This document shows positions 1 through 21,347 of a stretch of 54,394 bases of DNA, one piece after another (position 1 is the stretch's first letter; the number at the start of each line of letters is the position of its first letter). Made by a program: the position numbers and the translations under genes. The notes beneath the pieces are model-generated. The model saw only the letters and a program-made list of their open reading frames with translations, searched no databases and had not been told where the DNA came from. This stretch comes from a virus (Duplodnaviria; Heunggongvirae; Uroviricota; Caudoviricetes): IMG/VR virus record IMGVR_UViG_2541047753_000004. One strand, 5' to 3'.

Positions 1-1209
1 ATGTCGGTTTTTCATAACTGGCTGCTTGATATCGCAAGCGGGAATTACTTTATCTACATCAAACGCCTTTCTGCAAACGACACTGGCGCAACAGGTGGCC
101 ATCAGGTCGGACTTTATATCCCCTCAAATATCGTTGAAAAGCTTTTTCCATCTATCAATCATACTCGCGAACTGAACCCTTCAGTCTTCCTTACTGCGCA
201 TGTATCATCCCATGATTGCCCTGATACCCAAGCACGCGCAATTTATTACAACAACCGTTATTTTGGTAAGACCCGAAACGAAAAAAGAATTACGCGCTGG
301 GGGAGAGGAAGTCCATTACAGAACCCTGAAAATACAGGAGCTCTCACAATTCTTGCTTTCAGGTTAAACGAACAGAACACTGACTGTTCCGAGGTAGATA
401 TATGGGTCTGCGTCAATCCCGATGAAGAGGATATCATCGAGTCTGCTATTGGCGAAATCATACCTGGAACCCTAATTTCCGGCCCTGCCGGACAAATTTT
501 GGGCGGATTGTCTCTTCAGCAAACTCCAGTAAATCATAAATATGTTATTCCTGAAGACTGGAAGAAGCGTTTTCCTTCTGGAAACGAAATTATTCAATAT
601 GCTGCTGGCCATTATGCTAAAAACTCCAAGGATCCAGATGAGCAACTGATTGACCGTCGGCGTGTCGAGTATGATATTTTTCTACTCGTCGAGGAATTAC
701 ATGTTCTTGATATTATTAAGAAAGGATTCGATTCTGTAGATGAGTTTATTGCATTAGCCAACTCTGTCAGTAATCGACGTAAATCAAGGGCAGGTAAATC
801 ACTTGAACTTCACCTAGAGAAGCTTTTTATCGAGCACGGACTACGGCATTTCTCCACTCAGGCAGTTACTGAAGGTAATAAAAAACCAGATTTCCTGTTT
901 CCTTCAGCAGAGGCATATCATAACGCTGAATTTCCTGTAGAAAACTTACGTATGCTGGCAGTAAAGACCACCTGCAAAGATCGCTGGCGTCAGATACTGA
1001 ATGAAGCAGATAAAATCCATCAGGTACATTTATTTACGCTGCAAGAAGGTGTTTCTTCAGCACAATACCGAGAAATGAAAGATGCGGGTGTCAGACTCGT
1101 TGTACCATCAACTTTACATAAAAAATACCCAGAAGCAGTTAGAGAAGAATTAATAACGCTCGGAGCATTCATTACTGAGCTGATAGAACTTTACACTGAA
1201 CTATCATAG
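1..1209 (+). CDS. ecoRIIR: Type IIE restriction endonuclease, EcoRII family
   Basis: 402-aa ORF; N-terminus MSVFHNWLL...YIKRLSANDTGATGGHQVGLYIP matches the EcoRII sequence as I recall it; convergent with a C5-cytosine methyltransferase. Confidence 0.8.
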   Translation: MSVFHNWLLDIASGNYFIYIKRLSANDTGATGGHQVGLYIPSNIVEKLFPSINHTRELNPSVFLTAHVSSHDCPDTQARAIYYNNRYFGKTRNEKRITRWGRGSPLQNPENTGALTILAFRLNEQNTDCSEVDIWVCVNPDEEDIIESAIGEIIPGTLISGPAGQILGGLSLQQTPVNHKYVIPEDWKKRFPSGNEIIQYAAGHYAKNSKDPDEQLIDRRRVEYDIFLLVEELHVLDIIKKGFDSVDEFIALANSVSNRRKSRAGKSLELHLEKLFIEHGLRHFSTQAVTEGNKKPDFLFPSAEAYHNAEFPVENLRMLAVKTTCKDRWRQILNEADKIHQVHLFTLQEGVSSAQYREMKDAGVRLVVPSTLHKKYPEAVREELITLGAFITELIELYTELS

Positions 1210-1243
1210 GCTGACTCCCGGCTTAAAAGGCCGGGAGGTGTTC

Positions 1244-2677
1244 TCAAGGCTGCCCAGTCTTACCAGCATCAGCAGAAACAGCTTTGAGGATATAGGGTTC
1301 CAGAAGTCTGGCAACGGCTTCAAATACTGGCACCACAACGGAGTTACCGAACTGCCGATATGACTGAGTATCTGAAACCGGAATACGGAATGGTTTCCCT
1401 CCAGGTTTTTCAAACCCCATAAGGCGTGCGCACTCTCGGGGAGTCAGCCTGCGTGGTCGACGAGCCTGGTTACTCTCATTCATAAAGTCAGCCTCTCCCG
1501 TTGCCATATCCCAACCACGATCAATAAGAATTTCTGATCCGTCTTTGTGATATCTGGCAGAAAGTGTGCGTGCAATGCTTTCCTTATTCTCAGGATTGAC
1601 CAACCCAAAGCCAAAACCATTCCCCTTGGCTGCATGCTTTTTGGCGTAGTTATAAAGGTACTCCCATAGTTTTGGCGTAAGTATATATTTACTGTCGACT
1701 ACAGGCTCCAGCAATTCACCAAATGATGGGCGGTGTTCCGGATAAAAACGACTGATATCACGCAAGGTAAACCCCTTGTGAATATTCAGATCTCGTCTAA
1801 ATCCGACCAGAACAATGCGTTCACGATGCTGAGGCAAAAAATGCTTCCCATCGATAATCTTTGGATCGTTTTTTCCCATTTCTGCAGCATCGGCAACTTC
1901 GTAGCCCAGCTCGTCAAGGGTCTCCATAATGACTTTGAAAGTTTTACCCTTATCATGGCTCTTCAGATTTTTGACATTTTCCAGCACAAAAATTGCCGGT
2001 TTTTTTGCTCGTATAATACGTGCCACGTCAAAAAAAAGTGTTCCTTGTGCTTCACATTCAAAACCATGCGCACGACCAAGTGAGTTTTTCTTACTAACAC
2101 CAGCAAGGCTAAATGGCTGGCACGGGAACCCCGCAAGAAGCACATCATGATCCGGCACATGCTCATCAATATATGCATAAGCATCCGTTTCCAATACATC
2201 GGTTTTATCACTCAGCGTGACTTCCCGAATATCGAGATTGAATTTATGCACCTGTTCATCGTTAAACCAGTTGGCCTTGTATGTACGCACAGCATCTTTA
2301 TTCCATTCACTGGTAAAAACACACTGACCTCCAATGGCCTCAAAACCTTTCCGTATCCCTCCAATTCCAGCAAATAAGTCAATGAAGCGGAAAGCATATT
2401 CCGGATGGTTTGCAGGTGGTTCTGGTAGCATCTTACGCAGAAGAGACTCTTCTACTGAAGTCAACGATTTTGGTAAACACTTGCCATTAATCCAGCGGTT
2501 AATGGTTTCACGGCTCCACTCATTTTTTCCGACTTTTCTCAGTAATTCAGCCACATACTTCTGATCATAGATTTCCAGCACTTTCTCGATAAGCTTTTTA
2601 TCATTTTCCTGTCGCAGCTTTTCTTCCGCCTCGGCTTCCTTCAGCAGATGCTGTGCCAACACTTCAAATTCAGACAT
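1244..2677 (-). CDS. ecoRIIM: DNA (cytosine-5) methyltransferase, M.EcoRII/Dcm-like
   Basis: C5-MTase motifs [10 protein letters not shown] (motif I), FPCQPFS (PCQ, motif IV), ENV (FVLENVKNL), QFGNSV; likely start at MSEFEVLAQ giving 477 aa; ORF track extends 14 codons upstream. Confidence 0.85.
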
Positions 2678-2895
2678 AATTCCTCCAAGGGGTCTAATGG
2701 GTGAAACTTTATCACTCATTCAACCCAGAAGGAAATGTTTTATCTGGATATTTAAACAGTGACTACAACGTAATCTAGCACTGGTGATGCTTTGTTAGGC
2801 ATAGAGAATCATTCTATATACGACTAATGACAGAAAAACAGCAGACAAGTAGTTTGTTCATAAATTAACGCATACAACGTGCCTGCGGTTTTTGA

Positions 2896-3852
<957 letters not shown>

Positions 3853-3909: not shown

Positions 3910-4464
3910 TCATTTATCTCCGACCGGAAACTTCTTATACAGTGTCGATATACCAACATCATAGATGATCGCCACCTTCTGGCGAGGAACGCCTGATGCA
4001 ATTAATCGCCCGGCCTGCGCCCATTGTTCTGGTGTAAGTTTGGGACGACGTCCACCAATTCGTCCCTGTGCGCGAGCAGCTTCCAGTCCAGCTTTTGTTC
4101 GTTCAACAATCAGTTCTCGTTCCATTTCAGCCAGGGCACCCATCACATGAAAGAAAAAACGCCCCATCGGTGTGCTGGTATCAATAGCATCCGTCAGGCT
4201 GCGAAAATTAACGCCACGTTCGCGCAACTCCTCAACCAGAATGACCAGATGCCGCATACTACGCCCTAGCCGATCCAGCTTCCAGACAACCAGAGTGTCA
4301 CCTGCCGATAATGTCCTGAGCAGTTTTTTCAGTCCCGGCCTTTCGGACTTTGTACCGCTTATCTTGTCTTCAAAAATCAGCTCGCATCCTGCACAGTTCA
4401 GCGCATTACGTTGTAGATCTGTGTTCTGGTCATTTGTTGACACACGTACATAGCCAATAAGCAT
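3910..4464 (-). CDS. pin: Serine recombinase, DNA invertase Pin/Gin/Hin family
   Basis: MLIGYVRVSTNDQNTDLQRNAL... with catalytic Ser context and C-terminal HTH; 184 aa from MLIGY start; adjacent to inverted crossover sites. Confidence 0.9.
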   Translation of the reverse strand: MLIGYVRVSTNDQNTDLQRNALNCAGCELIFEDKISGTKSERPGLKKLLRTLSAGDTLVVWKLDRLGRSMRHLVILVEELRERGVNFRSLTDAIDTSTPMGRFFFHVMGALAEMERELIVERTKAGLEAARAQGRIGGRRPKLTPEQWAQAGRLIASGVPRQKVAIIYDVGISTLYKKFPVGDK

Positions 4465-4490: not shown

Positions 4491-4883
4491 ATGATGCCAT
4501 TTGCTCGTTATTTCTGCATTTTCATAAACGTTGGTTTGGGAGAAGGTTCAGCATTACCTGTTGGTGCACCTGCGCCTCAGCTTCCTGATATACCTACAAC
4601 TGTGTGGCTTAATTCCGTCCCAGCAGATCTTACTTCTGAAGACGGTTTAGATCTTCAAAGGGCTCACATGGCTGATCCACTGCCGTCTCTGGGCGGTGTA
4701 ATTATTTTTGCCAGGGCAGATTCGAGTGGGTGTGATACGGGATTTTCAACTCAGGGTTGTACTCCCGCAACTTTTAATGTTAGAGATTTACATGATGCTG
4801 GTGATAACCAGGTGCATATTAATTTCAATTCCAGTATCGCCGTAGCTGGTGTCGATGCTGTTTTTATTGCATTAGACTCATAA
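4491..4883 (+). CDS. Alternative tail-fibre C-terminal segment (silent in current orientation)
   Basis: ORF reads through the left crossover site (…GLGEGSALPV…); inversion would fuse it in frame to the constant fibre N-terminus at 6444-6721. Confidence 0.45.
   Translation: MMPFARYFCIFINVGLGEGSALPVGAPAPQLPDIPTTVWLNSVPADLTSEDGLDLQRAHMADPLPSLGGVIIFARADSSGCDTGFSTQGCTPATFNVRDLHDAGDNQVHINFNSSIAVAGVDAVFIALDS
4519..4544. repeat. Invertase crossover site (ix-like), left copy
   Basis: 26-bp site ttttcataaacgttggtttgggagaa; reverse complement TTCTCCCAAACC AA CGTTTATGAAAA resembles hix/gix-type sites. Confidence 0.7.
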
Positions 4884-6382: not shown

Positions 6383-6721
6383 CTACTGAGCAGCTGTCCC
6401 AACATGTAATGTAGACGCTTCTCCCAAACCAAGGTTTTCGAGAGCCGTTTTCACGGTGCCATCCGATTTGATATCGTCAAACGGATTCTTGCGGCTTAAC
6501 AGCAGCGCACGAAGCGCGGTAAGCAGCTGGTCATGCCGCCCCTTCTCCAGGCTGGCACCGGATGCCTCCACCACGCCACAAAGCTCTTCCTGCAACATGT
6601 CAAAGTAGTCATCATCCAGATCGGTGGCAGGCGTGCCAGTCTGGGGGTTACCACGGGTAAAACCGTTCTTACCCGCGCCGAACTTATCCTTCTGCGCGGT
6701 TTTCGTGTCTATACGATGCAT
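6383..6721 (-). CDS. Tail fibre protein, constant N-terminal part joined to a very short C-terminus in this orientation
   Basis: Directly downstream of the YmfQ-like baseplate gene; crossover site encodes residues ~93-101 (ALENLGLGE); ORF stops 11 codons later. Confidence 0.55.
6419..6444. repeat. Invertase crossover site (ix-like), right copy, inverted relative to the left copy
   Basis: ttctcccaaaccaaggttttcgagag shares 14 nt TTCTCCCAAACCAA with the left copy in opposite orientation; lies inside the 3' end of the tail-fibre gene. Confidence 0.7.
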
Positions 6722-6724
6722 GGA

Positions 6725-7309
6725 TTACTCCGGATATTTAAAAATTACGTAGGTATGCGACGGGCAGAGTTTGTTAAGCACACACTCGACAACGGTGTCA
6801 CCCCAGATACGCAGTGCGGAATCACAGGGATCGCCACATGTCATCCAGGTGGTGTTGGTGGTGGTTGGCATGTTGACCTGCCAGTAATACCGCCATTCCG
6901 GCGCATTCACCGCGTCAGTACAGGCCGATGAGCAGGTGAACGTGCTTTTGTCGTATCGCGTGATGGTGGCATCTGGTCTGCCCAGGGCAGCAAGCTGTGC
7001 AAGATAAAAATCCTCGTTGATGCCGCCCGCCAGGTTAACCTTCGCATCCAGCCGTTGCTGACGCTGGCGAAGGGTCTGCGTTCCCGCCGGAATACATTCA
7101 TCCGGCAGACCGCACAGACGCTCCCAGCGGTTTATCAGTTCAGTGGTGGTGCGCGGATCCAGCTCCCGCATCAGGGCATCCGCACGCTGATGAACACGGG
7201 TTAATGACGGTGCCGCACCGGCAATCGCCGGATCGCTGGCTGACCACGCCGGACCAGGCGGCAACAGTGCCGATAACAGGCGGATGTAATCATCGTTTGT
7301 CACGTCCAT
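6725..7309 (-). CDS. Phage tail protein, YmfQ/DUF2313-like (Mu gp48-like)
   Basis: 194 aa, position after baseplate J gene; family assigned from recalled similarity to e14 YmfQ. Confidence 0.65.
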
Positions 7310-8358
7310 GAAATCGTCCCCAGTACCGCCAGTTCGTTTTTCGCAATGGAGATATTGTCCACCGGTGCAAGCAACTGATGGCTGTATTCCCCGTTCGCAC
7401 CGGAAATCGCCTCACTGATACGCGATACCTTCAGTTCTCCCTGCGGATAACCATCACGCAGCAGGAACGAACGCAACTCCGCGGTAATGGCAGCCCGTAT
7501 TTCCGGTGTGTCCGGCGTCACGCGGATATGAAAATCCACCGTATGTGCCACCGGCCTGAATACATACAAATCAGAGCCTGCCACCGGGGCCAGTGGCCCG
7601 ATATGTTGTCTTGCTGCCGTTTCCGTTGATTCTTCCGGAATGGGATTAATCAGGTCACTGCTGGCAATCATCACACCGACAGTTCCCGTTCCCATCCAGT
7701 GACGGTATGTCCATGCGCGGGTAATGCCGGGCACTTCTTTAGCCCAGACGACATAGTCCCCGTCAGCCCCGCCCTGAGGCGTCCAGTAATACCGCTCAAT
7801 GACGCGGGCGCGCCACGTTTCCAGCTCTTCAGTATCAAATCCACCTGTCAGGGTATCTGCCACGCCGGAAGACGGCAGACCATTAACCGGCGTGACCAGG
7901 ATTAATGACGTACCGTCGTCAGCGTTACCGACCGCGCCTGCACTTGAGCAGGCGATCGGCACGCGCAGGACACCACCGGAGCTGGTTGCATCGGCAGTTG
8001 CCGTGTACTGAACCAGGTCATCGCGCTGAATAACACTCCCGGCGGTCACCTTCAGGCCATCGCTGACACCTTCCCAGCGCATATACCCGCTGGCAGCCGT
8101 GGCCCCCTTGCGCGGACACCGTTTCATCGCAGCATGTCGCGCCAGCCAGGACTCATCGCACAGGTCAGGCAGCATGTTCATTGCCAGATAATCGATGTAC
8201 CCGTAAACCGTATGCAGCGCCGCCGCATACACCTTTGCCCGCACGTCTTCATCCATGCGCCGGAGCGTGTCGCTGACGTCCAGCCTGGCGAATAAATCGT
8301 TACGGAGCATACTGATATTTTCTGCCAGCGTCGGGCGCTGAAATTCACTGTCCGCCAT
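7300..8358 (-). CDS. Baseplate J-like protein (Mu gp47-like)
   Basis: 352 aa, position and size in Mu-type baseplate module. Confidence 0.8.
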
Positions 8359-8773
8359 GCGTTATCGCACTCCACAGATCATCAAAAGAAATCATTACCG
8401 GTCCGTCACGACGCCAGAGAGTGATACTGTTACCCAGTTCATTAATCCCGGTGCGGCGGATATCCAGATCAATACGGGACACCACGCCGTCATCAATCAT
8501 CCATTGCAGGCATTCGCGGATATACCCCCTTACTGTCTGCACCAGCTGATTGGTCAGTTTGCTGCGCTGAAGCAGCCACAGTCGGGAGCCGTAACGGTCA
8601 TTCTGTACCGCAGGCCAGGTATCCCCCCACCATCCCATCGGGACGTCGGCATTGTCATCAGGCTCCGCCCGCCGCCAGGTGAACAGGGAAATCACCACAG
8701 CGCGGGTCAGCGGCTCCAGCGGTGCGCTGGCGCAGGTGCGTTTACCGTTCATCGTCAGCCACAGTTCCATCAT
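8345..8773 (-). CDS. Baseplate protein, Mu gp46-like
   Basis: 142 aa between gpV-like and J-like genes, overlapping starts typical of baseplate operons. Confidence 0.65.
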   Translation of the reverse strand: MMELWLTMNGKRTCASAPLEPLTRAVVISLFTWRRAEPDDNADVPMGWWGDTWPAVQNDRYGSRLWLLQRSKLTNQLVQTVRGYIRECLQWMIDDGVVSRIDLDIRRTGINELGNSITLWRRDGPVMISFDDLWSAITHGGQ

Positions 8774-9318
8774 GCCTCCATCGCTTTATCAGGTTTGTCG
8801 GTGTTACTGCCCTGACCGTTCTCTCTGTGACGATGCCCGTTATAGGCAAGCCGCATCGCTGACATGGTGGTGCCGCCGGAGTCGCACAGGTCTTTCACCT
8901 GTCCGGTCACTTCCAGGTCCATTTCAAAACGTGCTCTGGGCGCATTACGAAACGTGATCGTTTTACCTGCACCGTCCACCACGATACCCGCCCGGGTCAG
9001 CGTCACGGACTGCCCCTGATCGTCATAGACAGCCACCTCACCCGTCTGCAGCCCTTTCAGGCGGTAGCGCCGGTCCGACACCGTAACAACCACCGCATGA
9101 GAACGGTCGCCATCCGGAAACAACACCACCGCTTCCGCACCGCTGTTTGCCCTTGCGGTAAAACCGTAGGGTTCAAGATGTTCAACCCCGGCTTTGGGTT
9201 CACCGGCAATCAGGAACACATCCACGGTCTGACATTTCGTGGCGGCACTGATGCTTTTCACCACGGCCCGCCCAATCAGGCCGAGGAGTTGTCGCTGCAT
9301 GGCTTCAATCGTCCTCAT
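8770..9318 (-). CDS. Baseplate assembly protein V / spike (Mu gp45-like)
   Basis: 182 aa, position in module. Confidence 0.7.
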   Translation of the reverse strand: MRTIEAMQRQLLGLIGRAVVKSISAATKCQTVDVFLIAGEPKAGVEHLEPYGFTARANSGAEAVVLFPDGDRSHAVVVTVSDRRYRLKGLQTGEVAVYDDQGQSVTLTRAGIVVDGAGKTITFRNAPRARFEMDLEVTGQVKDLCDSGGTTMSAMRLAYNGHRHRENGQGSNTDKPDKAMEA

Positions 9319-10397
9319 CAGAACGGGTCCTCCTGTACTCTGGCTTTTTTCTTTTTCCGCGCGCCGGGGGCTTCGGGTTCAGGCAGATAAGCATCAGGTG
9401 GGCCGACACGGATTTCCGTCAGGGTGCCGTTCTGGTCCTGAGTAAACGTGACTTCCGAGACAAGCAGTTCGGTATTGTCGAAACCACAGACCGGATCGAA
9501 GACAATCACCCGCTGGTTGGGCTGCCACAGCGTACCGTTACCCTGTCGCCAGCCCTGCACCACATAGGTGGTTTCATCCGTCCGCGCCGCCCGTTGTCGG
9601 GCTTCAAAGTCAGCACGCGCAATACAGCCTGCCCCCGTAGCCTGCCCTGTCTGCCTGATATACATCGGACGATAACGGGCAATAAATGCGTCCTCTGTGC
9701 GGGCCCGCAGCGCAGTTGTGGTGGCCTCACCGAAATCATCGTCGTTTCCGGCACGCTGCCCCGCCACCTGGTAAACAGAAAACCGCTCCCGGATACTCTT
9801 CTCCGTATCGCAGGAAAGGATGTTTTCCCCGAGTACCAGCGCGGTATGTGCCCGCGTTGAGCCAATACCGCCAATCACCAGCCTGCCGTGCGGGTCGTCA
9901 TAAGCCAGCGCCTGCTGCTGACCGAGTATTTTGTTAATCACCTCGATCACCGTTTCACCGTGATCAGGCTGGACATCAGGAATAACACCCGACGGCGCAC
10001 CGCTGTTCACCACCTCAATGCCGAAGGGCGCAGCAAGCGCCTGCGCAATCTGTACCAGTGATCGTCCGTTAAACTGTGTCGGTTCGGCTGCACAATCAAT
10101 CAGGTCAGCGGTCAGACTGCGTCCGGCAATACCGGTGCTGACCGAACGGGCATCGTAACGAACGGGCGTCGCCTCCACCCAGCCGGTGATCACCAGCTCA
10201 TCACCAATCAGCACCTCCACTTTTGAACCGTTTTTAATGCGCGGCTGAAGCGTGGTGATACCCTCATCACCCGGCCACTGGCGGGTGATCTCCACACTGA
10301 AATCCCGCGCCAGTCGTTCAACACCGGCACCGATGCGCACCGATGTCCAGCTATTCCACTCCCGGCCATTTACCCGTAGCGTGACATTGTCGTTCAT
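9318..10397 (-). CDS. Baseplate hub / late control D-family protein (Mu gp44-like)
   Basis: 359 aa upstream of gpV-like gene. Confidence 0.65.
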   Translation of the reverse strand: MNDNVTLRVNGREWNSWTSVRIGAGVERLARDFSVEITRQWPGDEGITTLQPRIKNGSKVEVLIGDELVITGWVEATPVRYDARSVSTGIAGRSLTADLIDCAAEPTQFNGRSLVQIAQALAAPFGIEVVNSGAPSGVIPDVQPDHGETVIEVINKILGQQQALAYDDPHGRLVIGGIGSTRAHTALVLGENILSCDTEKSIRERFSVYQVAGQRAGNDDDFGEATTTALRARTEDAFIARYRPMYIRQTGQATGAGCIARADFEARQRAARTDETTYVVQGWRQGNGTLWQPNQRVIVFDPVCGFDNTELLVSEVTFTQDQNGTLTEIRVGPPDAYLPEPEAPGARKKKKARVQEDPF

Positions 10398-11722
10398 TGC
10401 ACTGGCACCTTCAGAGGGATCACCGGCACAAAGCCGGGATGCGTAATGGCATTACGCCGGATAATGTCCGCATCACGCGCCGCGTTATCAAACCAGGTCG
10501 CCGCCAGCACCAGCGCGGGTAAAACCTCATCCGGTGTGCGCTGAATGATCCGTGCAGACTGTTCAAGGCGCGTGTTGATATCCGCATTCAGATCTGCTTT
10601 CACCCGGCGCAGTGCCAGAAACAGCGCATCACTGGTTGTACGGGACAACTCCTTATCAATTGCCGTATTCAGTGTGTCGCGAATGTCAGTCAGTTCTTCC
10701 CACGTTGGCAGGTCAACCGTGTTTTTCACCGCCGGTGCATTGTTCAGTGCCGGATGCGTGACAGAAGGCCAGCCGGTGCTCTGCGCGGGTGTTGTTGACT
10801 GCCCCACTGTGGCATTCTGCATCACCGCGGAAGTTGTGGGCGCAGGCAATCGTGTGACGGCATACGCCGCTTCGCTGATTGCGGTAGTACGAAGGGTGCT
10901 GGCAACCACGTTACGCTGCTGCGTCGCCGTGGCGGTGGTTTTACTGTCCGTTTTCCAGACGCCGCGCGGTTGCAGATCGCTGCCGAGGCTGACACCGGAA
11001 AGCGTTTTGATCATGGTGACCAGGTCGCTGGCGTTACCATAAAGGCGTTTCCCGGTACGCCACATTTTCTGCACCTGCTCAACGAAATTTTTGCCTGACG
11101 ATGGTGGCGGCAGAAGTACCGAGATATCCCCCTGCAACAGCCTGGCAGCATCCGATACGGCAGAATCCACCACTTTCATCGCATCAGAAACATACCCAAG
11201 CATTGTGCTGGCATTACCGATAACGTCGTTCTGCACAAAATCCGCCACGCCATCGATACTGAAACCGCTGAAGCTGTCACTGATGCAGTCATCCAGTGCA
11301 GAACAGGATGACATCAGCGTCTGCGCCGTCGCCGCACCTGATGTGGGGTAAGAGAGTTCTCCCGCTTCGACAAACTTCAGGTCAAAGCGGACAATACGCC
11401 CTTCACTCTTCGATGTGCTGACCCGAACCTCTCCGTCAACACAGACTTTCAGCTCACCGTAAGTCGGATGGACAAGCGTGCCGGGACCGGGTTTATTCAG
11501 CGCGTCAATCAGGCGATCGCGCTGGTCAAAGCAGTCATCTCCCACCACATAAGCCGTGATGGACGGGCGGAAAGTGATTTTCCCCAGGTCTTCGGTATAG
11601 GGTTTGTCGCGGTTCGGGTATTCGTGCGTTTCCACACGACGACCGGTTCCCGCACTTTCTTCTTCAACCTTAAACGGCACACCGCGAAATGACGCGTCCT
11701 GAAGTCTGTCTTTCCACGTCAT
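10394..11722 (-). CDS. DNA circulation protein (Mu N / gp43-like)
   Basis: Follows tape measure gene; start set at MTWKDRL with GGAG 7 nt upstream; ORF track extends 14 codons further. Confidence 0.65.
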   Translation of the reverse strand: MTWKDRLQDASFRGVPFKVEEESAGTGRRVETHEYPNRDKPYTEDLGKITFRPSITAYVVGDDCFDQRDRLIDALNKPGPGTLVHPTYGELKVCVDGEVRVSTSKSEGRIVRFDLKFVEAGELSYPTSGAATAQTLMSSCSALDDCISDSFSGFSIDGVADFVQNDVIGNASTMLGYVSDAMKVVDSAVSDAARLLQGDISVLLPPPSSGKNFVEQVQKMWRTGKRLYGNASDLVTMIKTLSGVSLGSDLQPRGVWKTDSKTTATATQQRNVVASTLRTTAISEAAYAVTRLPAPTTSAVMQNATVGQSTTPAQSTGWPSVTHPALNNAPAVKNTVDLPTWEELTDIRDTLNTAIDKELSRTTSDALFLALRRVKADLNADINTRLEQSARIIQRTPDEVLPALVLAATWFDNAARDADIIRRNAITHPGFVPVIPLKVPVQ

Positions 11723-11735
11723 ATAAACTCCGTAC

Positions 11736-11759
11736 ATAAAAAATCCCACCGGAGTGGGA
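11736..11759 (-). terminator. Intrinsic terminator-like hairpin between tape measure and DNA-circulation genes
   Basis: Minus strand TCCCACTCCGGTGGGA followed by TTTTTT. Confidence 0.4.
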
Positions 11760-11782
11760 CTCATTAACAGATTAATTTTTCA

Positions 11783-13618
11783 TTACCTGCCAAAGCGCGT
11801 ATAGCCAACATCATGGCTGACATCAAAACCGCTGGATCGCGTTTCCATAACCCGCATACCCGGAGGCGAATTCACAAAAGAGACCTTGATCTCACCATCA
11901 ACTTTTGGCGCAGTAGCTTTATTAATCATGAAGGGATTCGGGCCTGTGGCATCGGAGGCGTTGTTTGACTGAGCCAGATCTACCGCCGGATAAGGTGTGT
12001 ATCCCCGTGCCGGTATTCCCGTCCCATAAGCATCATAAGCACCCGCGCCCCACTGCGCAGAGTTAATGGCATCGACCGTGTCTCCGGAACTGTCGGTAAA
12101 CCACTCAATAATTGGCTTCAGCTTGTCCCACATATCCTGAAACCACTTAACAACCGGCCCCCAGTTATTGATCACCATCCCCAGCGGCGACCAGGCAAAA
12201 ACTTTCTTAAGGAGTTCCCAGCCAGCCTCAAAATAAGGACCAATGGTTTCCCAGAGTTTCTTAAAATAAGGTCCGACAACATCCCAGTTAGTGATAATTA
12301 ATCCCGCAGCCAGGGCTATCGCCGTCGCAATCATGCCAATCGGCGTCATCGACATGATCCTGCTGACAATACTGATGGCACCGCCAACTCCCATCAATCC
12401 CAGTTTCAGAATCGCAAGACCGGCAGCAAGCCCGACGACGCCGCGAATAACCCGGGGATTTTCATCCGCAAACTTCGTGAATTTTTCCCCCAACTCCCCC
12501 AGCCATTGCGTGATATTTTTAGCGTCACCAGAAAATGCGCCGCCAATAGCTGCAAGACCGTTAGTTGCGGTCCCCGTCATTGCCTCCCACAGGTTGGACA
12601 GCGTACCAAGCTGTGCCTGAACACGTTTATTCAGGCTGGCCTGTTTATTCATCTTCTGCTGGATCTGATCGTAACCATCCTTTCCTTTATCGATCAGAGC
12701 ATTGACCACCTGAAGGGTTTCGGCATCATCACCAAATATTGCCTTAAGTACACCTGTTCGCTTAACGTCGGTCAGTTTTCGCAGCTTTGCCAGTTGCTTA
12801 AACATGTTATCAAGACCGCCAAAACTCCCTTTGCCGTCAGTAAAATCGAGCTGCACTCCGAGTTTCTGGCGGGCCATGACTTTATTGACGTCCCTGATTT
12901 TCTTAACGCTTAATCCGGACTGGATAACTTTTCGCAGGGCATTACCTGCCGACTCCCCGTTCATCCCCATCTGATCCATCATGACGCTGATAGGGGCAAG
13001 GCTCTGTGCAGCCTGAAGACCGTCCTTATTCACCATCTTCAGAACAGAACTGGTTTTAGTGAAGAAGGACAACATGTTGGTATCGTCAACGCCCAGATAA
13101 AACGCTTTCTGGATAGTGTCGAACAGCCCCATCATGTCTTCTGACGCCGTTCCGGTAGCATCCTGCATCTTTGCAGCAAACTCGGCAGCCGCTTCCGGTG
13201 TTTTTTTCAGTTGTACCGCAAGATAAGCTGTCGCTTTACCCACACCACCCAGAATGTTTTCTGCCGGGATCCCCTGACGCACCAGCATCTGCATCATGTT
13301 CTGGAAATCAGCCGTTGTACCGGGTAGCTGGTTACCCAGGCCAATAGCCAGTTTATTGATGTCCTGAAAGCTCTTTCCAACCTCGCCGTTCGCATCCATC
13401 ATGGCGACTTTCAGCCCGGTGGCGGCGTTTTCCTGATCGGCATAAGATTTCAGGGAAAGCGTCAGACCCGCTGCCAGTCCGCCACCAAGCGGCAGCCCAC
13501 CCTGTGACGCTTCTTCCGCCTGGCGTTTAAATCCCCGGATTTTCTTTTGCATTTTCGACAGCGCCGGAGAAAGCCTGTCGACACCGGTGATCAACGCCTT
13601 AAGCTCAAATTCAGCCAT
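11783..13618 (-). CDS. Tail tape measure protein
   Basis: 611 aa, Ala/Gly-rich helical segments, hydrophobic region near C-terminal third, position after chaperone genes. Confidence 0.85.
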   Translation of the reverse strand: MAEFELKALITGVDRLSPALSKMQKKIRGFKRQAEEASQGGLPLGGGLAAGLTLSLKSYADQENAATGLKVAMMDANGEVGKSFQDINKLAIGLGNQLPGTTADFQNMMQMLVRQGIPAENILGGVGKATAYLAVQLKKTPEAAAEFAAKMQDATGTASEDMMGLFDTIQKAFYLGVDDTNMLSFFTKTSSVLKMVNKDGLQAAQSLAPISVMMDQMGMNGESAGNALRKVIQSGLSVKKIRDVNKVMARQKLGVQLDFTDGKGSFGGLDNMFKQLAKLRKLTDVKRTGVLKAIFGDDAETLQVVNALIDKGKDGYDQIQQKMNKQASLNKRVQAQLGTLSNLWEAMTGTATNGLAAIGGAFSGDAKNITQWLGELGEKFTKFADENPRVIRGVVGLAAGLAILKLGLMGVGGAISIVSRIMSMTPIGMIATAIALAAGLIITNWDVVGPYFKKLWETIGPYFEAGWELLKKVFAWSPLGMVINNWGPVVKWFQDMWDKLKPIIEWFTDSSGDTVDAINSAQWGAGAYDAYGTGIPARGYTPYPAVDLAQSNNASDATGPNPFMINKATAPKVDGEIKVSFVNSPPGMRVMETRSSGFDVSHDVGYTRFGR

Positions 13619-13793
13619 GTGTGCGTTTCTCCTGCTCTATCCTGTTTGCCTGACTGACCAGTAAGGGAATTTCACTGATCGGCATATTCAGCAATTCGAA
13701 AGGATTAATGCGCCAGTAACTGGCGCAGTCAAAGAAGCGATCAGTGAGGTATTCAGCCGTCAGGCCTGGAGGAAAAAACCGGCCACAAGCCAC
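13611..13793 (-). CDS. Tail assembly chaperone -1 frameshift extension (GT-like)
   Basis: Overlaps the 3' end of the chaperone ORF in the -1 frame; slippery heptamer T_TTT_TTC at 13772-13778 (minus strand). Confidence 0.45.
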   Translation of the reverse strand: MACGRFFPPGLTAEYLTDRFFDCASYWRINPFELLNMPISEIPLLVSQANRIEQEKRTHG

Positions 13794-14029
13794 GCCGCTG
13801 CATTCAGGTCTGCCGGAGACATCTGGTCGACAGAGCTTTGCGGCACTTTCGCCAGCCGCACGATGTATTTCGATACCACATGCGCCAGAAGTCTGACGGA
13901 CTCATCCTGATTCATCTGGTAGGGATATCCCAGCTCGCGGACATCTTTCCCGGTGGGCTCATCAAACTCCAGTACGGAGAGTGTCTCGCCATGAGCGGTA
14001 ATCGGTTTCTTTAACTCAAGCTCTTTCAT
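13760..14029 (-). CDS. Tail assembly chaperone (G-like, frame 0)
   Basis: 89 aa between tail tube and tape measure genes; ends in a slippery site. Confidence 0.55.
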   Translation of the reverse strand: MKELELKKPITAHGETLSVLEFDEPTGKDVRELGYPYQMNQDESVRLLAHVVSKYIVRLAKVPQSSVDQMSPADLNAAAWLVAGFFLQA

Positions 14030-14385
14030 TACTGGTAATCCCCTTCTTCACCGTGGAACTCAAGATCAACCGTGCCTTCTTCGGCATTATGGTTCGCTTC
14101 GCCGTGCAGCCAGGCAGACGACAGTACATAGACCTGACCGTTCGCCAGCTCGGCAGTGATTGTCATCTCATCAGACGAGGTGATTTTGTTCACCGGAAAA
14201 TTCTTCGGCACCTTGAAGGTCCCTTTGACATAAGGCGCACGGTGAGTTTCCTTGCGGTCCACTGAGCCGTCCAGGCCGATGATGTCATCATTGACCGTCC
14301 TGTTCATGGGCACCTCAATGCCGCCGGTCAGCGATAGCTGCTGACCGTCAATTTTGAAATAACAGGTTCCCCCGATACGGGCCAT
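14029..14385 (-). CDS. Tail tube protein (contractile tail)
   Basis: 118 aa directly downstream of sheath gene. Confidence 0.7.
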   Translation of the reverse strand: MARIGGTCYFKIDGQQLSLTGGIEVPMNRTVNDDIIGLDGSVDRKETHRAPYVKGTFKVPKNFPVNKITSSDEMTITAELANGQVYVLSSAWLHGEANHNAEEGTVDLEFHGEEGDYQ

Positions 14386-15881
14386 TATGCAGACTCCTCT
14401 GAATACTGAAGACGGAACTGGTTAACCACGGCAAAGACACGCAACTGGTTAACATAGTCAGGCGGGAACAGCGTGTTCAGGCGGTTCGGATCGCTGGCAT
14501 CACGCTCCACAACCAGGTACTGCTTAAACAGTTCGTAGTTTTCCACGATCCCCGCACGCTCGAGCTGACGGTAGGTTGCCAGCAGTTCCCCTTTGATCAC
14601 CGCCGGGGTGACAATCGCCTGACCGGGACCAAAGCGGGTACCGTCACTGGCAAGCTTGTGACGCCCGTACTTACTGGTAATGACGGATTTCAGTTTGCGC
14701 AGTACATACGCACTGGTATGCAGCGTCTCGCTGTCGAGGTAGCTGTTATCCGCAACCCCGTAAGCATTTTTCCTGTACGTGGTGACATCACGCTGAATGC
14801 GCAGCACCCCGCTTTCGACATACGCCGTTGCCACGCCATGAGACAGCAGGGTCTGTTGTTCGGTCATCGTGAACCGTTTCCCCTTCGGCGCAGGCAGCAT
14901 ACCCACCAGCTCACCGGTCTGCGTGGGACGTGCCGGATCGTTGCGAATAAACACCGCTGCGCGGGCGGCACGGCTTGCCGCCAGCTCGTCGGCAGGCGTC
15001 TGGGTCTCTTTTTCGTACCCCGCCAGGGTAATGTGCTGCTGGTTAAACTGGTCACCTGCGGTCACCAGTTCTGACAGCGTGCCGATCTTTGCCGTATACA
15101 CATGACCATACAGCTGACGCGCATAGCTCCAGCGACCGCTGGTATCGTTCATCTCGGTCACCAGCGTGTTAACGGAGGCCGTGTCGTTGAACGGAAGACC
15201 GATATAATCAAACGGCTCATCCGCCATTGCAGCCACCGCGCCGGTGAGAACAGGAGCCCCCGTTCCGGCGGTCCCCGCCGCCACGGCAATCTGTACGCCC
15301 GCAGGCAGCACTTCTCCCCCACCGAAGCCGTAGTAATTGAGGCTGACTGGAATTTCATTCCCGCAAAGCCCCTTATGACGCGCGGTCAGTGTGACCACGC
15401 CAGCCGAAGATGAGGCCGTAAACGGCAGGGCCGGAACGGCATTGATGGCATCCTGGATACTGCCGGCAATCGTCGCGACGTTATCGCCATTGGTCACCGG
15501 TGCCTGCACGCGGGTACGTCCCACATAAACATTCACCGTGCCGGTTTCGGTTGCCGCCCCGGTCACCGTCAGCGTAACCGTTGCCGCCGCGCCTGTGGCT
15601 TCCGGAACGGCAATCACATACAGCTCGCCAAACGGGTCAGTCTGGCGATAAGCCTCGACCATACGCGCCAGCTGACTTCCCGCACCACAAATCTGGCGTG
15701 CATAGTCTGCCGACGGCATCAGTACCAGACTGTTGGCAACAATCTCTGCACCGTTATTGGCATGACCAATCAGCAGCGATGCTCCGCTGTCCTGTGCAGT
15801 ATTCGCCGCCTGGTTATCCATTTCCGCATAAAACAACGGAACCAGCGTATTCGACGGAATGGTGTTAAAGCTTATCGTCAT
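14385..15881 (-). CDS. Tail sheath protein
   Basis: 498 aa; size and position, sheath-tube-chaperone-TMP order. Confidence 0.85.
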   Translation of the reverse strand: MTISFNTIPSNTLVPLFYAEMDNQAANTAQDSGASLLIGHANNGAEIVANSLVLMPSADYARQICGAGSQLARMVEAYRQTDPFGELYVIAVPEATGAAATVTLTVTGAATETGTVNVYVGRTRVQAPVTNGDNVATIAGSIQDAINAVPALPFTASSSAGVVTLTARHKGLCGNEIPVSLNYYGFGGGEVLPAGVQIAVAAGTAGTGAPVLTGAVAAMADEPFDYIGLPFNDTASVNTLVTEMNDTSGRWSYARQLYGHVYTAKIGTLSELVTAGDQFNQQHITLAGYEKETQTPADELAASRAARAAVFIRNDPARPTQTGELVGMLPAPKGKRFTMTEQQTLLSHGVATAYVESGVLRIQRDVTTYRKNAYGVADNSYLDSETLHTSAYVLRKLKSVITSKYGRHKLASDGTRFGPGQAIVTPAVIKGELLATYRQLERAGIVENYELFKQYLVVERDASDPNRLNTLFPPDYVNQLRVFAVVNQFRLQYSEESA

Positions 15882-16035
15882 CGGTATTCACCTTTTTATT
15901 CACGCGCCGGATATCACCCGCTGCTTCACGGCGCAGCCAGTAGTTGTTCTCGTCAACATTTCGCCCTTCGGCGGGCAAAAGGTCGCCGCGGGCAGGATCA
16001 GGAACTGACCGCCCTTTAACAGGTTTGACAAACAT
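15865..16035 (-). CDS. Small hypothetical protein (56 aa) upstream of sheath gene
   Basis: Hand-translated ATG ORF MFVKPVKGRS...; below the ORF-track length cut-off; overlaps sheath start. Confidence 0.25.
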   Translation of the reverse strand: MFVKPVKGRSVPDPARGDLLPAEGRNVDENNYWLRREAAGDIRRVNKKVNTDDDKL

Positions 16036-16043
16036 GAGGATCC

Positions 16044-16604
16044 TCAGGAAGGAAGGGTTATTTCGGTGTGATGTTCGATATCGCCGTCAGGCCCGTTACC
16101 GGGCTCGAGATAATCAACATCAATCGCCAGCGTTTGCAGTTCATCCAGACTGTTCAGATCATCCTGCTGGCGGGTATCGTCTTCAGTCAGCTCGCTGATG
16201 ACCGAAAAATCGAACTGATAAATCAGCTCATGACGATTCAGATCCAGCAGCGTGCCGCCGTCATAGGTAATCGGGTTACCGCACGCCTCCGGGTTCCAGC
16301 CCAGCAGAGCCTTAAAGAGCATCTGCCGGACATCGTCCACCACATCATACGAGGCAAACTGACCGCGCTCATCACGCCCGTTACTCAGTATGACAACCAC
16401 GGAGAAACCCTCTTTCAGCTCCTGCCAGTAGTCGGTCTGGCTTTTGTTTTCTCCCGGAGAATCATCACCCGGTACAACATATGCCGCCGGGAGTTTCAGC
16501 TTTCCGACCTCCGGCAGATTTTTGAACTGGGCCGCGCCTGCAACCCGGTTTTCAAAATACGGACAGCGGGCACGCAGTGCAGCAATAACAGGCGTCAGTT
16601 TCAT
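16044..16604 (-). CDS. Tail/neck protein (Mu gp38-like, putative)
   Basis: 186 aa, position between head-completion genes and sheath. Confidence 0.45.
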   Translation of the reverse strand: MKLTPVIAALRARCPYFENRVAGAAQFKNLPEVGKLKLPAAYVVPGDDSPGENKSQTDYWQELKEGFSVVVILSNGRDERGQFASYDVVDDVRQMLFKALLGWNPEACGNPITYDGGTLLDLNRHELIYQFDFSVISELTEDDTRQQDDLNSLDELQTLAIDVDYLEPGNGPDGDIEHHTEITLPS

Positions 16605-17107
16605 CTGTGTCGTCGCTCCGGCTTCAGTGATTTACGCAATTCCCGCGCCAGAAAATAGCGTGTCCAGCTGCGGTTCTTTTCAAGCGTTTCCACCATGAAG
16701 TTATTACGTGGAGCCAGTCGCCAGCCGCTGCCACCGGATGCGCCACGATGATGGCTGCGACGACGCTTTGCCCCTCGCCTCACGCCATAGAACAAAAAAG
16801 CCGGATAAAAATCACCGGTGATACGGCGGTTTCCCTCTCCATTACGCTGGTTAGGGGCTATACGTGCCATAAAACCAGGGCGATGTTTACTGGCTCTGGG
16901 TACCATGTAACCAATCGAACGAGCCAGGCGTCCGGTCTGATAACCGGGGTTTTCACCCGGTGCCGACCGCGCACGGCGCATCACCAGCCGACGGGCATCA
17001 CGCATATGACGCTGACCAATCGTGACAAACGCCCGCCGGACACGGGCGCGGTTAAAGCGCATCTCCGCGGGCTGCTGAAAATCAACGTGCAAAAAGGAAG
17101 TCGTCAT
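16601..17107 (-). CDS. Virion morphogenesis / tail completion protein (putative)
   Basis: 168 aa, basic, position. Confidence 0.45.
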   Translation of the reverse strand: MTTSFLHVDFQQPAEMRFNRARVRRAFVTIGQRHMRDARRLVMRRARSAPGENPGYQTGRLARSIGYMVPRASKHRPGFMARIAPNQRNGEGNRRITGDFYPAFLFYGVRRGAKRRRSHHRGASGGSGWRLAPRNNFMVETLEKNRSWTRYFLARELRKSLKPERRHR

Positions 17108-17492
17108 TGTTGCCTCCGTGACTCTGCCTACATTCGCCCAGCTCCGTACACTCCAGCAGCAGAAAGCGCCGCGCCCCGTTCAGATCGCGCTGACGTTTCA
17201 CCCGGTACACACTGTCACCGCAGACCACCTCATAATCAGCGGTGATCCCCCGGCGGTAACGAATGGTGATGTAATGGGTGATGGCGTCCCCGGTCTGCGC
17301 GGTTTCCTGCCAGGTGGTGGCACTGGTCTGGATAACCTTCGCCCATGTCCGGAACGTAACCGGGTATTGAGGCTCCACGCCAAAGTTATCCGCGGGCATA
17401 TCCACCCGCAGGCGGATCAGGACGCATTTATTCAGTTCACCGGGGTCCGGCAGAATGTAAGTTGCGCTGGTCTGCGCCTGACGAATTTTCAT
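17082..17492 (-). CDS. Head-tail joining / head closure protein (putative)
   Basis: 136 aa, position after connector gene. Confidence 0.45.
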   Translation of the reverse strand: MKIRQAQTSATYILPDPGELNKCVLIRLRVDMPADNFGVEPQYPVTFRTWAKVIQTSATTWQETAQTGDAITHYITIRYRRGITADYEVVCGDSVYRVKRQRDLNGARRFLLLECTELGECRQSHGGNNDDFLFAR

Positions 17493-17812
17493 TGCGGAAA
17501 GTACCTGTACGGGCCGACAAGCCAGCCAAAACTCTGCGGCATGTCGAGTTTCTCCACTTCCGTAACCGACGAGCGGTTTTCGTAAAAATGGCTGATAAGC
17601 ATCAGCATCCCCAGACGAATATCATCCGGCAGGTGCAGCCCGTCCGGATCGCTGTCCGGAATGGATTCATCCGGTGCATAGAGCTTCCGGTTCAGATACG
17701 TTTCCGTCCGCTTTTGCGCCGCACAGGCCAGCAGTTGCAGATGGCGGTCATCAGCATCGAAATCCTCATCCAGCCGGAGTTGGGCTTTAATCTCTTCCAT
17801 TGTCAGAAGCAT
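17489..17812 (-). CDS. Head-tail connector protein (gp6-like)
   Basis: 107 aa directly downstream of capsid gene region. Confidence 0.55.
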   Translation of the reverse strand: MLLTMEEIKAQLRLDEDFDADDRHLQLLACAAQKRTETYLNRKLYAPDESIPDSDPDGLHLPDDIRLGMLMLISHFYENRSSVTEVEKLDMPQSFGWLVGPYRYFPQ

Positions 17813-17814
17813 AC

Positions 17815-18015
17815 TCAGCTCTCTTTACTGGTCGTGGCTTTTTTCTCTTTTGCCGCTTTACTGCTTTTTGCACTGGTTCCGCGCTCAGCTAACCCGGCCT
17901 GAAGTGCAATCTCCTGCACCCGGGCAGGAAGCGCCCCGTCGTCATACTCACCGGCCCGAATGACCTCAACACGCATACCGTCCGGTGACCATTTCAGATC
18001 TTGTTTCAGGATCAT
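17815..18015 (-). CDS. Small hypothetical protein (possible head decoration/scaffold accessory)
   Basis: 66 aa, Lys/Ala-rich C-terminus, located after major capsid gene. Confidence 0.3.
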   Translation of the reverse strand: MILKQDLKWSPDGMRVEVIRAGEYDDGALPARVQEIALQAGLAERGTSAKSSKAAKEKKATTSKES

Positions 18016-18064
18016 GATTCTTCACCCGTCAGAACAGGGGGCGCGGTTCCGCGCCCCTGAATGA

Positions 18065-19270
18065 TTACGCCGCTGCAATCTTCAGCAGTTTGATGGCCTG
18101 CGAATCGACCAGCATCCCGCCGGTGCGCTTGGTGGTATAAAAACCGACAAACGGTTTATTGGTGTACGGATCACGCAGAATGCGGGTGCCGATACGGTCA
18201 ACGATGGTGTAACCCCGTTTGAAGTTACCAAATGCAATGGCTTTCGCATCAGCGGCGATATCCGGCATCTGTTCGTTTTCAGCGATACCGTAACCCGCCA
18301 GAGAGGACGGCTGCCCCAGTTCCAGCCCCGGACGCCACAGATAGTTACCCTCGGTGTCTTTCAGCAGACGGATGGCAAACAGGCTGTTGTTGTTCATCAT
18401 GAACTTCGCGCCAGTGCGGTGTGCCTTTCGCAGCGTGTAAATCAGTTTGATAATGGCGTCTGCGGTCACCGCGGTCGCTTCGCCGGATACAATATGCTGA
18501 AGTTTGCCGAACGCCCGGACCTTATCGGTTTCATCAGTGGATTCATACGCCAGGAACCCTTTCGGCTTCTTGGTACCATCGCCGGTGGTAAAGGCAATTT
18601 CTTCCTGTTCGGCAAATTCGGTTGCCAGCTCGCTGTTGATCCAGGCCTCCACGTTGAAGAAGGCATCATCCAGCATTTTCTGGGTGGCCTGCGGGTTGCC
18701 GTAGATTTCCCCCATGAGAGGTTCAATCAGCTCCAGTCTGGAGGTGGCAGTCTGGGATCGCGTATCCGTTTCCCCCACCCATCCGGAAGCCGTGCCGCCC
18801 AGATTCACCAGTTTTTTGTAGTCGGAACCGCCAACGGTGATCACCGTGGCTTCCTGGCGCATCACCACTTCATCTTTCAGCAGGGTGAGAATGTTGCGAT
18901 CCAGCGCTTCCGGCACGGCATAGCCACCGTCTTCATCGGTGCCCACCTGCAATGCCTTACGCTCCAGATCGCGCAGACCATCTTCACGGCCTTTACGCAA
19001 AAAGCCCACAAACGCTTCTTTATGCTCGGTGGCCAGTTTATTTTGCGCGCCACCTGCCGGACGTTTCAGCTCAAGCAGCTCTTTTTCAAGATCGCTTTTG
19101 AGATTTTCCAGCTCGCTGAGTTTCCCGTTCAGGGTTTCCACCTGCCCGGCAAGCTTGCCTTTTTCCTGCTCAATCGCATCCACGCGCTTGTCGTTCTTTG
19201 CTTTGAAGTCGTCAAACTTCTGCTGCAGCTCCTGCGCGACCTGTTCGACATCTTTAATATCTACCGCCAT
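18065..19270 (-). CDS. Major capsid protein, HK97 family
   Basis: 401 aa with N-terminal coiled-coil delta-like domain followed by capsid fold region; downstream of prohead protease. Confidence 0.9.
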   Translation of the reverse strand: MAVDIKDVEQVAQELQQKFDDFKAKNDKRVDAIEQEKGKLAGQVETLNGKLSELENLKSDLEKELLELKRPAGGAQNKLATEHKEAFVGFLRKGREDGLRDLERKALQVGTDEDGGYAVPEALDRNILTLLKDEVVMRQEATVITVGGSDYKKLVNLGGTASGWVGETDTRSQTATSRLELIEPLMGEIYGNPQATQKMLDDAFFNVEAWINSELATEFAEQEEIAFTTGDGTKKPKGFLAYESTDETDKVRAFGKLQHIVSGEATAVTADAIIKLIYTLRKAHRTGAKFMMNNNSLFAIRLLKDTEGNYLWRPGLELGQPSSLAGYGIAENEQMPDIAADAKAIAFGNFKRGYTIVDRIGTRILRDPYTNKPFVGFYTTKRTGGMLVDSQAIKLLKIAAA

Positions 19271-19284
19271 CGTATTTCTCCTGA

Positions 19285-19935
19285 TTAGAAGTTCAGATTT
19301 TTCAGTGCATTCAGTGCAGAGCCCACATCCTCAGCGTCGCGCAGGGACAGTGCGCCATAGCCCCCGGCCATGAATGCTTTGGCCTGGGTACGGGAGAGTC
19401 CGACATCACGCAGGACTCTTTCGATTTTTTTCTGTTCGGGGATTTCCCCGCGGGCCAGCGCGTTCTTGACGTCGCTGATCCGCGCCTCGTCGTTAGACGG
19501 AAACGTCACCAGACTGACTTCCCAGAGGTCGATTTCTTTCAGCAGAAAGGCTTCTTTCGTCCGGTCGTATTCCCAGTCCTTCAGGACGTACCCAATAGAA
19601 AGGCCGGTTAACGAACCGGCCTTCATGTGTGCATGTGCGCGTTTTGCCAGGGGATCATCATCAATGAGCAACCGCCCCCTGACGTAAAGCCCGACATCGT
19701 CTTCCTTCATTTCGGTGTAAACACCGATGGGTTCATCCATGCGGTGCTGCCAGAGCAGCGCAGGTAACGCTTTTCTGTCACTCCACGCCCGCAGGGAAGC
19801 AGCAAATGCCCCGGACATCACCACATCATCGTGGCTGTCCTTTACACCAAAGACGGAGCCATACCCTTCAAACTCACCGGAGTCACTGACAGATTTCAGA
19901 CTCAGCGGTACATCAAGACGTTGTTTCGTCTGCAT
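19285..19935 (-). CDS. Prohead protease, HK97 family
   Basis: Between portal and capsid; start probably MQTKQRLDV; ORF track extends 12 codons upstream. Confidence 0.8.
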   Translation of the reverse strand: MQTKQRLDVPLSLKSVSDSGEFEGYGSVFGVKDSHDDVVMSGAFAASLRAWSDRKALPALLWQHRMDEPIGVYTEMKEDDVGLYVRGRLLIDDDPLAKRAHAHMKAGSLTGLSIGYVLKDWEYDRTKEAFLLKEIDLWEVSLVTFPSNDEARISDVKNALARGEIPEQKKIERVLRDVGLSRTQAKAFMAGGYGALSLRDAEDVGSALNALKNLNF

Positions 19936-21154: not shown

Positions 21155-21336
21155 TATTTACCTCCGCCGACAGACGACTGTGTACGGTCGAGATATCGCG
21201 CCACCAGCCACGACCAGAACAGACACAACGCCCCGGCAACAACAAACCCCGCCGGGGGATAAATCAGCCAGGCACCATACGCCAGCAAAAGCGCCCCCAG
21301 CACGCCCACCAGAGGCGCGAGAATCAGCATGATCAT
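21154..21336 (-). CDS. Small hydrophobic protein (hypothetical)
   Basis: 60 aa with two predicted TM stretches, between terminase and portal. Confidence 0.3.
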
Positions 21337-21347
21337 AATTACCTCAG

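Follow-up and report, generated by a model that had tools for sequence, protein, structure and literature searches.

An intact EcoRII-family restriction-modification cassette as probable accessory cargo at the ssrA end of an SfV-like Escherichia coli prophage

Restriction-modification (R-M) of the EcoRII type has been described from the IncN plasmid N3 (pN3), in which the genes for the endonuclease (R.EcoRII; PDB 1NA6, 3HQF and 3HQG) and the methyltransferase (M.EcoRII) converge on a gap of about 34 bp that holds a conserved hairpin. M.EcoRII represses its own promoter, and this depends on methylated sites which Dcm can also supply (PMC12707154). Dcm recognises CCWGG (PMC4659465) and is encoded, overlapping vsr, at the chromosomal yedJ-yedA locus of Escherichia coli. 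The temperate Burkholderia phage KL3 has a CCWGG-type endonuclease and methylase as accessory genes, which with its own vsr make three co-directional genes (PMC3091744), and prophage cargo of other kinds, such as CMoRE/PD-T4-3 in E. coli and the gtr serotype-conversion genes of SfV-family phages, lies between the tail-fibre genes and attP. Here, we have analysed a 54,394-nucleotide stretch of DNA from a tailed virus of the Caudoviricetes (IMG/VR record IMGVR_UViG_2541047753_000004; hereafter the window), which begins with convergent genes for an endonuclease (R) and a C5-cytosine methyltransferase (M). We are confident, though short of certain, that these form an intact EcoRII-family Type IIE cassette, and that a temperate myovirus of the SfV-like type, integrated at ssrA, carries it as accessory (moron or defence) cargo in a variable slot that runs from attP to the tail-fibre/pin/CMoRE end. 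As a system it is ordinary and well understood, only its location being slightly unusual, and its parts are as follows.

1 to 1209, plus strand: R gene, EcoRII-family Type IIE restriction endonuclease of 402 aa (Pfam, PDB, pN3 alignment, PADLOC)
1210 to 1243, no strand: inter-gene gap of 34 bp with a hairpin, stem 1215-1222 / 1230-1237 (8-bp stem, 7-nt loop)
1244 to 2677, minus strand: M gene, M.EcoRII-type C5-cytosine methyltransferase of 477 aa (Pfam, NCBIfam, pN3 alignment, motifs)
2678 to 2759, minus strand: M promoter/operator region and Shine-Dalgarno sequence (alignment with pN3 and pSA20051401.1)

R has the two-domain architecture of the EcoRII family, with an N-terminal, B3-like effector domain (Pfam EcoRII-N on residues 16-163, E 4e-61) and a C-terminal catalytic domain of the PD-(D/E)XK type (EcoRII-C on residues 227-391, E 2e-71). 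It aligns with the EcoRII structure 1NA6 over its full length and without gaps (E 4e-242), it is matched by the PADLOC model REase_II at E 1e-233, and 346 of 401 residues (86%) are identical in an ungapped alignment with R.EcoRII of pN3, the remaining 55 being substitutions. When the catalytic and DNA-contact residues of EcoRII listed in PMC2770665 (EcoRII numbering) were followed through this alignment, all 28 were found to be kept. These include the four catalytic residues E271, D299, K324 and E337, the residues of the C domain that read CC:GG (K328, D329, R330, N260 and R262), the pocket that takes up the flipped bases (R222, E225, Y226, F229, R265 and A266) and the base contacts of the effector domain (N28, H36, Q37, Y85, R94, E96 and R98), together with six phosphate contacts. 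The KL3 nuclease, which has the EcoRII-C domain, aligns only to residues 169-395 of R at about 39% identity, whereas R is a full two-domain Type IIE enzyme.

M combines the N-terminal, autoregulatory DNA_meth_N domain with the DNA_methylase domain (Pfam), and it contains all five of the methyltransferase motifs sought (I, IV, VI, VIII and X, as FxGxG, PCQ, ENV, QxRxR and GNSV). Its ATG at 2677 is preceded by GGAGG; an alternative in-frame ATG at 2719 would give a protein of 491 aa. The NCBIfam model of the Dcm/EcoRII subfamily, PRK10458, scores M at 927 bits (cutoff 710), and M has this subfamily, the DNA_meth_N domain and the expected CCWGG target in common with chromosomal Dcm. Alignment nevertheless separates the two, as M is identical to M.EcoRII of pN3 at 431 of 474 positions (91%; 43 substitutions, with the central and C-terminal parts nearly identical), whereas it matches the chromosomal Dcm of the R-M-bearing E. 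coli strain 13C1079T at only 301 of 442 (68%). On this difference in identity, M is an orthologue of M.EcoRII rather than a copy of dcm, and the possibility that it is simply a second dcm was ruled out by the same figures together with the presence of a partner R gene. The surroundings differ as well, since M is paired with R on a mobile element and the convergent R gene lies downstream of it, where dcm-vsr or a KL3-type arrangement would have a vsr adjoining or overlapping the methyltransferase gene. Neither R nor M has a frameshift or an internal stop in the reading frames of the window, and the matches of both are far too strong to be due to chance. Because the 28 listed residues and the methyltransferase motifs are all kept, we strongly infer that the pair is specific for CCWGG and behaves as a Type IIE system. 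The original prediction had placed an EcoRII-like endonuclease and a Dcm-like methyltransferase, converging on one another, in the first 2,677 positions, and had named low identity to EcoRII or a frameshift in either gene as grounds for doubt; with 86% and 91% identity to the pN3 pair, two intact genes and a meeting point at the 34-bp gap, its description of the pair is borne out, save that 'Dcm-like', which is correct as far as it goes, is imprecise for an M.EcoRII orthologue.

The likeness to plasmid EcoRII extends a short way beyond the coding sequences and then stops. The pN3 system has the same convergent order, gap and hairpin, proteins of matching length (402-404 and 477 aa) and domain architecture, the same catalytic and DNA-contact residues and similar promoter-proximal regions. 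Upstream of the M start, about 82 bp are shared with pN3 and pSA20051401.1 before the similarity ends abruptly at 2759. As position 1 of the window is the first base of the R ATG, the R promoter and the junction with ssrA were read from NZ_CP081192.1, which is 100% identical over window positions 1-2800, and here about 70 bp upstream of R are shared with the plasmid EcoRII copies. Beyond some 70-90 bp upstream of each gene, the flanks of the plasmid and the prophage copies are unrelated. Since the promoter regions and the hairpin are shared with plasmid EcoRII and nothing further out is, the whole appears as a discrete cassette of about 2.85 kb, consisting of R, the hairpin, M and the promoter region of each gene. 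The arms of the hairpin are kept in pN3 and in a Salmonella plasmid copy, while the bases flanking them differ, and the structure is probably a bidirectional terminator. A simple terminator scan misses it because there is no T-run, and a scan for consensus promoters and terminators gave signals at background level only. At the DNA level, the cassette is about 80% identical to the plasmid EcoRII copies, of which 532 plasmid records fall in the 80-90% band, and its G+C content is 43.6% compared with 55.6% for the phage structural genes. A further difference from N3 is the carrier, which there is a conjugative plasmid and here a temperate phage in the chromosome at ssrA.

The features that place the cassette within this prophage, and those next to it, are given below.

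2870 to 2888, plus strand: attP-like remnant of 19 nt (P-arm end with the adjoining 4 nt of the core), at which the cargo slot ends on the right
3079 to 3852, plus strand: CMoRE/PD-T4-3, GIY-YIG type IV nuclease for DNA with 5-hydroxymethylcytosine (5hmC) or glucosyl-5hmC (5ghmC) (PADLOC, PDB)
3910 to 4464, minus strand: pin-type serine invertase (Pfam Resolvase and HTH_7; annotated pinE in related genomes)
37723 to 38895, plus strand: tyrosine integrase gene (domain matches), just inside attR
40916 to 40941, plus strand: attR, exact 26-nt repeat of the ssrA 3' end (pattern search: 1 match, 0 expected)

In NZ_CP081192.1, the ssrA (transfer-messenger RNA) gene, which provides attL, ends 234 bp upstream of R. 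As the 3' end of ssrA recurs at 40916-40941, the R-M pair lies inside the prophage, which is of the SfV/SfII-like type. From attL, the gene order is R, M, the GIY-YIG gene, pin, an invertible tail-fibre segment, and the baseplate and tail genes. Window positions from about 6400 to 23700 (tail to terminase) are about 97% identical to the Shigella/E. coli phages SfII, SfI, SfIV and SfV, none of which matches the first 6.4 kb of the window. A related arrangement is found in NZ_CP081794.1, a circular record of 43,671 bp that was deposited as a plasmid and has the content of a complete SfV-like phage genome. This record, which is an assembly and not virion DNA, holds head, tail, lysis, immunity and int genes and the same R-M pair, in the order tail-fibre assembly, acyltransferase, CMoRE (GIY-YIG), M, R, attP, DinI and int, and its content thus places the R-M pair within a phage genome that is circular and has an integration module of another type. 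Elsewhere the same slot is filled differently, with BRO-N, helix-turn-helix (HTH) and ImmA genes in strain A32 and without the R-M pair in NCTC11129, and from about position 2870 onward the sequence is common to prophages that lack the pair. The R-M pair is therefore dispensable accessory cargo in a slot, between attP and the tail-fibre/pin/CMoRE end, whose content varies. Variable content, low G+C and a promoter for each gene are also properties of the cargo known from this side of other prophages; what sets the present cargo apart is that it consists of a classical Type II R-M pair, where the others are single-gene systems or O-antigen modification genes.

The gene that follows M within this slot encodes CMoRE, as judged from the PADLOC model PD-T4-3 (E 2e-140) and a full-length match to PDB 9U75 (E 4e-172). 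PD-T4-3, recently renamed CMoRE, degrades DNA containing 5hmC or glucosyl-5hmC and neither binds nor cuts plain DNA or DNA with 5-methylcytosine (5mC) (PMC12923530). It is outside the R-M system but in the same cargo island, so that this end of the prophage is a small two-system defence island. As CMoRE ignores 5mC, it is compatible with an adjoining 5mC methylase, and it should complement the R-M pair, since T-even phages dodge EcoRII-type cleavage by means of hydroxymethylcytosine (hmC) yet are targets of CMoRE. The two systems are linked in 244 genomes, across records with different flanking genes and integrase types, and some 600-750 other genomes have CMoRE but not the R-M pair, which makes the pair an add-on to a pre-existing defence slot. 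Taken together, R-M and CMoRE mark the att-proximal end of SfV-like prophages as a defence hotspot.

The cassette is widely distributed in E. coli. Counting carriers by DNA identity over window positions 1-2800, we found several E. coli chromosomes at 100% and 263 E. coli records at 99% or more; the exact variant is in about 5% of complete E. coli genomes, and the exact R protein, which is already in RefSeq under generic names, is on 970 contigs. Of 5426 complete E. coli genomes, 5367 contain a dcm-like sequence, so that these hosts would normally have a Dcm of their own. R-M-bearing chromosomes have two methylase places each, and strain 13C1079T, which shares the M gene of the window at 100% identity, has intact dcm and vsr at the usual yedJ-dcm-vsr-yedA locus. 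The window itself encodes no Vsr homologue anywhere (best tblastn E 1.2). With dcm-vsr in nearly all E. coli, the host Dcm should pre-protect the genome and so blunt post-segregational killing, and repair of T:G mismatches by the host Vsr would explain why vsr need not travel with the cassette, unlike in KL3. In its usual host, the cassette is thus probably pre-protected, cheap to acquire, reliant on the host Vsr and non-addictive. The remaining claims of the original prediction agree with these findings: the pair was said to be terminal cargo of a prophage, and it lies between attL and attR and recurs in the circular record of a related phage; it was placed at the pin-proximal end, as the gene order confirms; no vsr was seen next to the methyltransferase; and an interaction with the host Dcm and Vsr was expected, for which 13C1079T provides the setting and published work the precedent (PMC3874152, PMC12707154). 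The identity of the next gene as CMoRE and the variability of the att-proximal slot go beyond what had been predicted.

By near-identity to the studied EcoRII enzymes, we can propose how the cassette would work. M would methylate the inner cytosine of CCWGG and repress its own promoter; this autorepression is predicted from the roughly 82 bp of upstream sequence in common with pN3. R, as a dimer, would have its catalytic core auto-inhibited by the N-terminal effector domains until these bind further unmethylated copies of CCWGG, upon which the activated enzyme would flip the central W base pair and cut before the first C. If the genes are expressed in the lysogen, it should cut incoming DNA in which several CCWGG sites are unmethylated, for instance that of phages or plasmids coming from sources that lack Dcm or under-methylate. 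On entering a new dcm-vsr host, the cassette would be established without self-restriction and its loss should not kill, whilst T:G mismatches arising from 5mC deamination would be repaired by the host Vsr. Together with CMoRE, this end of the prophage would then attack both unmodified and hyper-modified cytosine DNA and spare 5mC as 'self'.

Several considerations weigh against the reading of the pair as phage-borne defence cargo. With Dcm in about 99% of strains, DNA arriving from other E. coli would for the most part be protected already, which makes the size of any defence benefit uncertain. Methylation by the cassette would be indistinguishable from that by Dcm in genome data. Sites of CCWGG are not avoided in the prophage (104 observed compared with 92 +/- 8.5 expected), which is neutral evidence. 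A near-identity DNA search of the phage collection matched the cassette in no isolated phage, and the protein search of the same collection returned only Burkholderia phage KL3, the sole named phage there with an EcoRII-like nuclease, and two unannotated 6-7-kb human faecal 'Bacteriophage sp.' records; packaging in virions is predicted from the single circular assembly deposited as a plasmid. With regard to the first of these points, Hattman and colleagues are said to have reported in 1973 that Dcm protects lambda only partially against the restriction encoded by N3, and if this holds, hosts that have Dcm could still gain some defence from the cassette. One might instead suppose that the cassette is mainly selfish, and that, through post-segregational killing, it stabilises the prophage (addiction) more than it defends the lysogen. 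Killing of this type is documented for EcoRII, and the cassette is found on a mobile element adjoining an att site, but solitary, resident Dcm attenuates the killing of the host that follows EcoRII loss (PMC3874152). As the R-M-bearing strain, like about 99% of E. coli, has Dcm, addiction should be largely neutralised, and we consider this account unlikely. It is a decidedly improbable alternative that R is silent or inactive and that the pair acts as an extra, orphan Dcm-type methyltransferase, for example in shielding phage DNA from plasmid EcoRII in the next host. The activity of R is a prediction, and EcoRII cassettes of about 80% identity are common on plasmids, so a phage CCWGG methylase would give protection; yet R has lost none of its length, of its catalytic and recognition residues or of its promoter region, and it is 100% conserved across many unrelated strains, whereas decay would be expected of a toxic gene that is not used.

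Whether the pair belongs to the phage at all, or forms a separate small islet in tandem between ssrA and the prophage that would be left behind at excision, bears on the same evidence and on the att-like sequence at 2870-2888. At the attP of phage CT01, this 19-mer, GCATACNACGTGNCTNCGG, is made up of the last bases of the 119-bp P arm and the 4 nt with which the core begins. The window has a single copy, that on the CMoRE side, which separates the R-M pair from the rest of the prophage, and two circular records, CT01 (L007; 29070-29088 and 32213-32231) and pHNAH212872-4 (L002; 19724-19742 and 22870-22888), have two copies each. In both of these, the direct repeats are about 3.13 kb apart and enclose the core, a 155-bp flank, R and M. 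Such bracketing counts towards an islet, and ssrA is a known hotspot with tandem islands, a second of which starts at 41126 in the window. Against an islet, the ssrA core is not repeated between the phage body and the R-M pair, the window having one match even when 3 mismatches are allowed; the circular phage record NZ_CP081794.1 holds the pair between CMoRE and attP-int; and the linkage of the pair to CMoRE is maintained despite differing flanks and integrase types. We therefore regard the islet as very improbable. The paired 19-mers do suggest that the R-M segment was once acquired as a unit at an att core, and another prophage with different cargo between comparable att-like sequences counts in the same direction. 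It is a doubtful idea that the segment is an exchangeable cassette which was caught by the site-specific recombination of the phage at its att core and then co-selected with CMoRE. Were it true, the att-proximal defence slots of SfV-like phages would resemble a one-cassette integron, and the pair and CMoRE would make up a three-state discriminator of cytosine in which unmodified CCWGG is cut by R, hmC and glucosyl-hmC DNA by CMoRE, and 5mC is taken as self. The divergence from the prototype, at 14% in R (55 substitutions) and 9% in M (43), also leaves the predicted specificity to be considered, but a shift away from CCWGG is scarcely credible. The residues reading CC:GG, the central W and the flipped bases are unchanged in both domains of R, M hardly departs from M.EcoRII in its central and C-terminal parts, and Dcm, at only 68% identity, still recognises CCWGG (PMC4659465).

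Carriage as accessory cargo of an SfV-like phage thus remains the reading that we prefer, and it has some consequences. It would put a textbook plasmid R-M system, as a variant of about 80% DNA identity, on a temperate phage in roughly one in twenty complete E. coli genomes, and would offer a natural setting for the long-known interplay between Dcm, EcoRII and Vsr, in which acquisition should be cost-free and addictive power lost. Why R should stay intact in a species that is Dcm-positive is then a fair question. In practical terms, lysogens of this phage may restrict DNA made in dcm-negative cloning strains.

Some further observations concern the surroundings of the cassette. The second record with paired 19-mers, pHNAH212872-4 (NZ_CP104634.1), was considered as a plasmid location and rejected, as this 30-kb circle consists, apart from the R-M, CMoRE and pinE block, of ecp and pao genes of the chromosome; it probably came from a chromosome by misassembly or excision and is not a true plasmid. 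An Rfam scan for an RNA gene at the att-like sequence upstream of CMoRE gave no match there, its matches being in the second island only. On the ssrA side, the 155 bp between ssrA and the cassette (L001 19767-19921, just before window position 1) contain a terminator-like hairpin and recur at 95-97% identity in many E. coli, for example ST131, in which neither the R-M pair nor CMoRE follows; the flank would seem to be an arm that elements integrating at ssrA have in common. Beside pin, a segment of about 1.8 kb is bounded by 48-nt inverted repeats (4526-4573 / 6390-6437) and is probably an invertible tail-fibre switch of host range; pin is intact in the window and a pseudogene in the otherwise near-identical strain EC1722-1.

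At the other end of the prophage, between the integrase and attR, three co-directional genes on the minus strand (38887-40757) encode proteins of 303, 108 and 205 aa. The first has a weak match to HATPase_c_2 below the Pfam cutoff, the second contains DUF4325 (STAS-like) and the third belongs to phrog_30059, of unknown function. PADLOC gave no match for these three genes, which may be uncharacterised cargo. After attR, a second island follows in tandem at 41126-54394, and with a P4-type integrase at 41126-42319 and Rfam matches to C4 antisense RNA (48356-48443), isrK (48171-48248) and c4-a1b1 (48158-48210), it resembles a satellite element of the P4 type.

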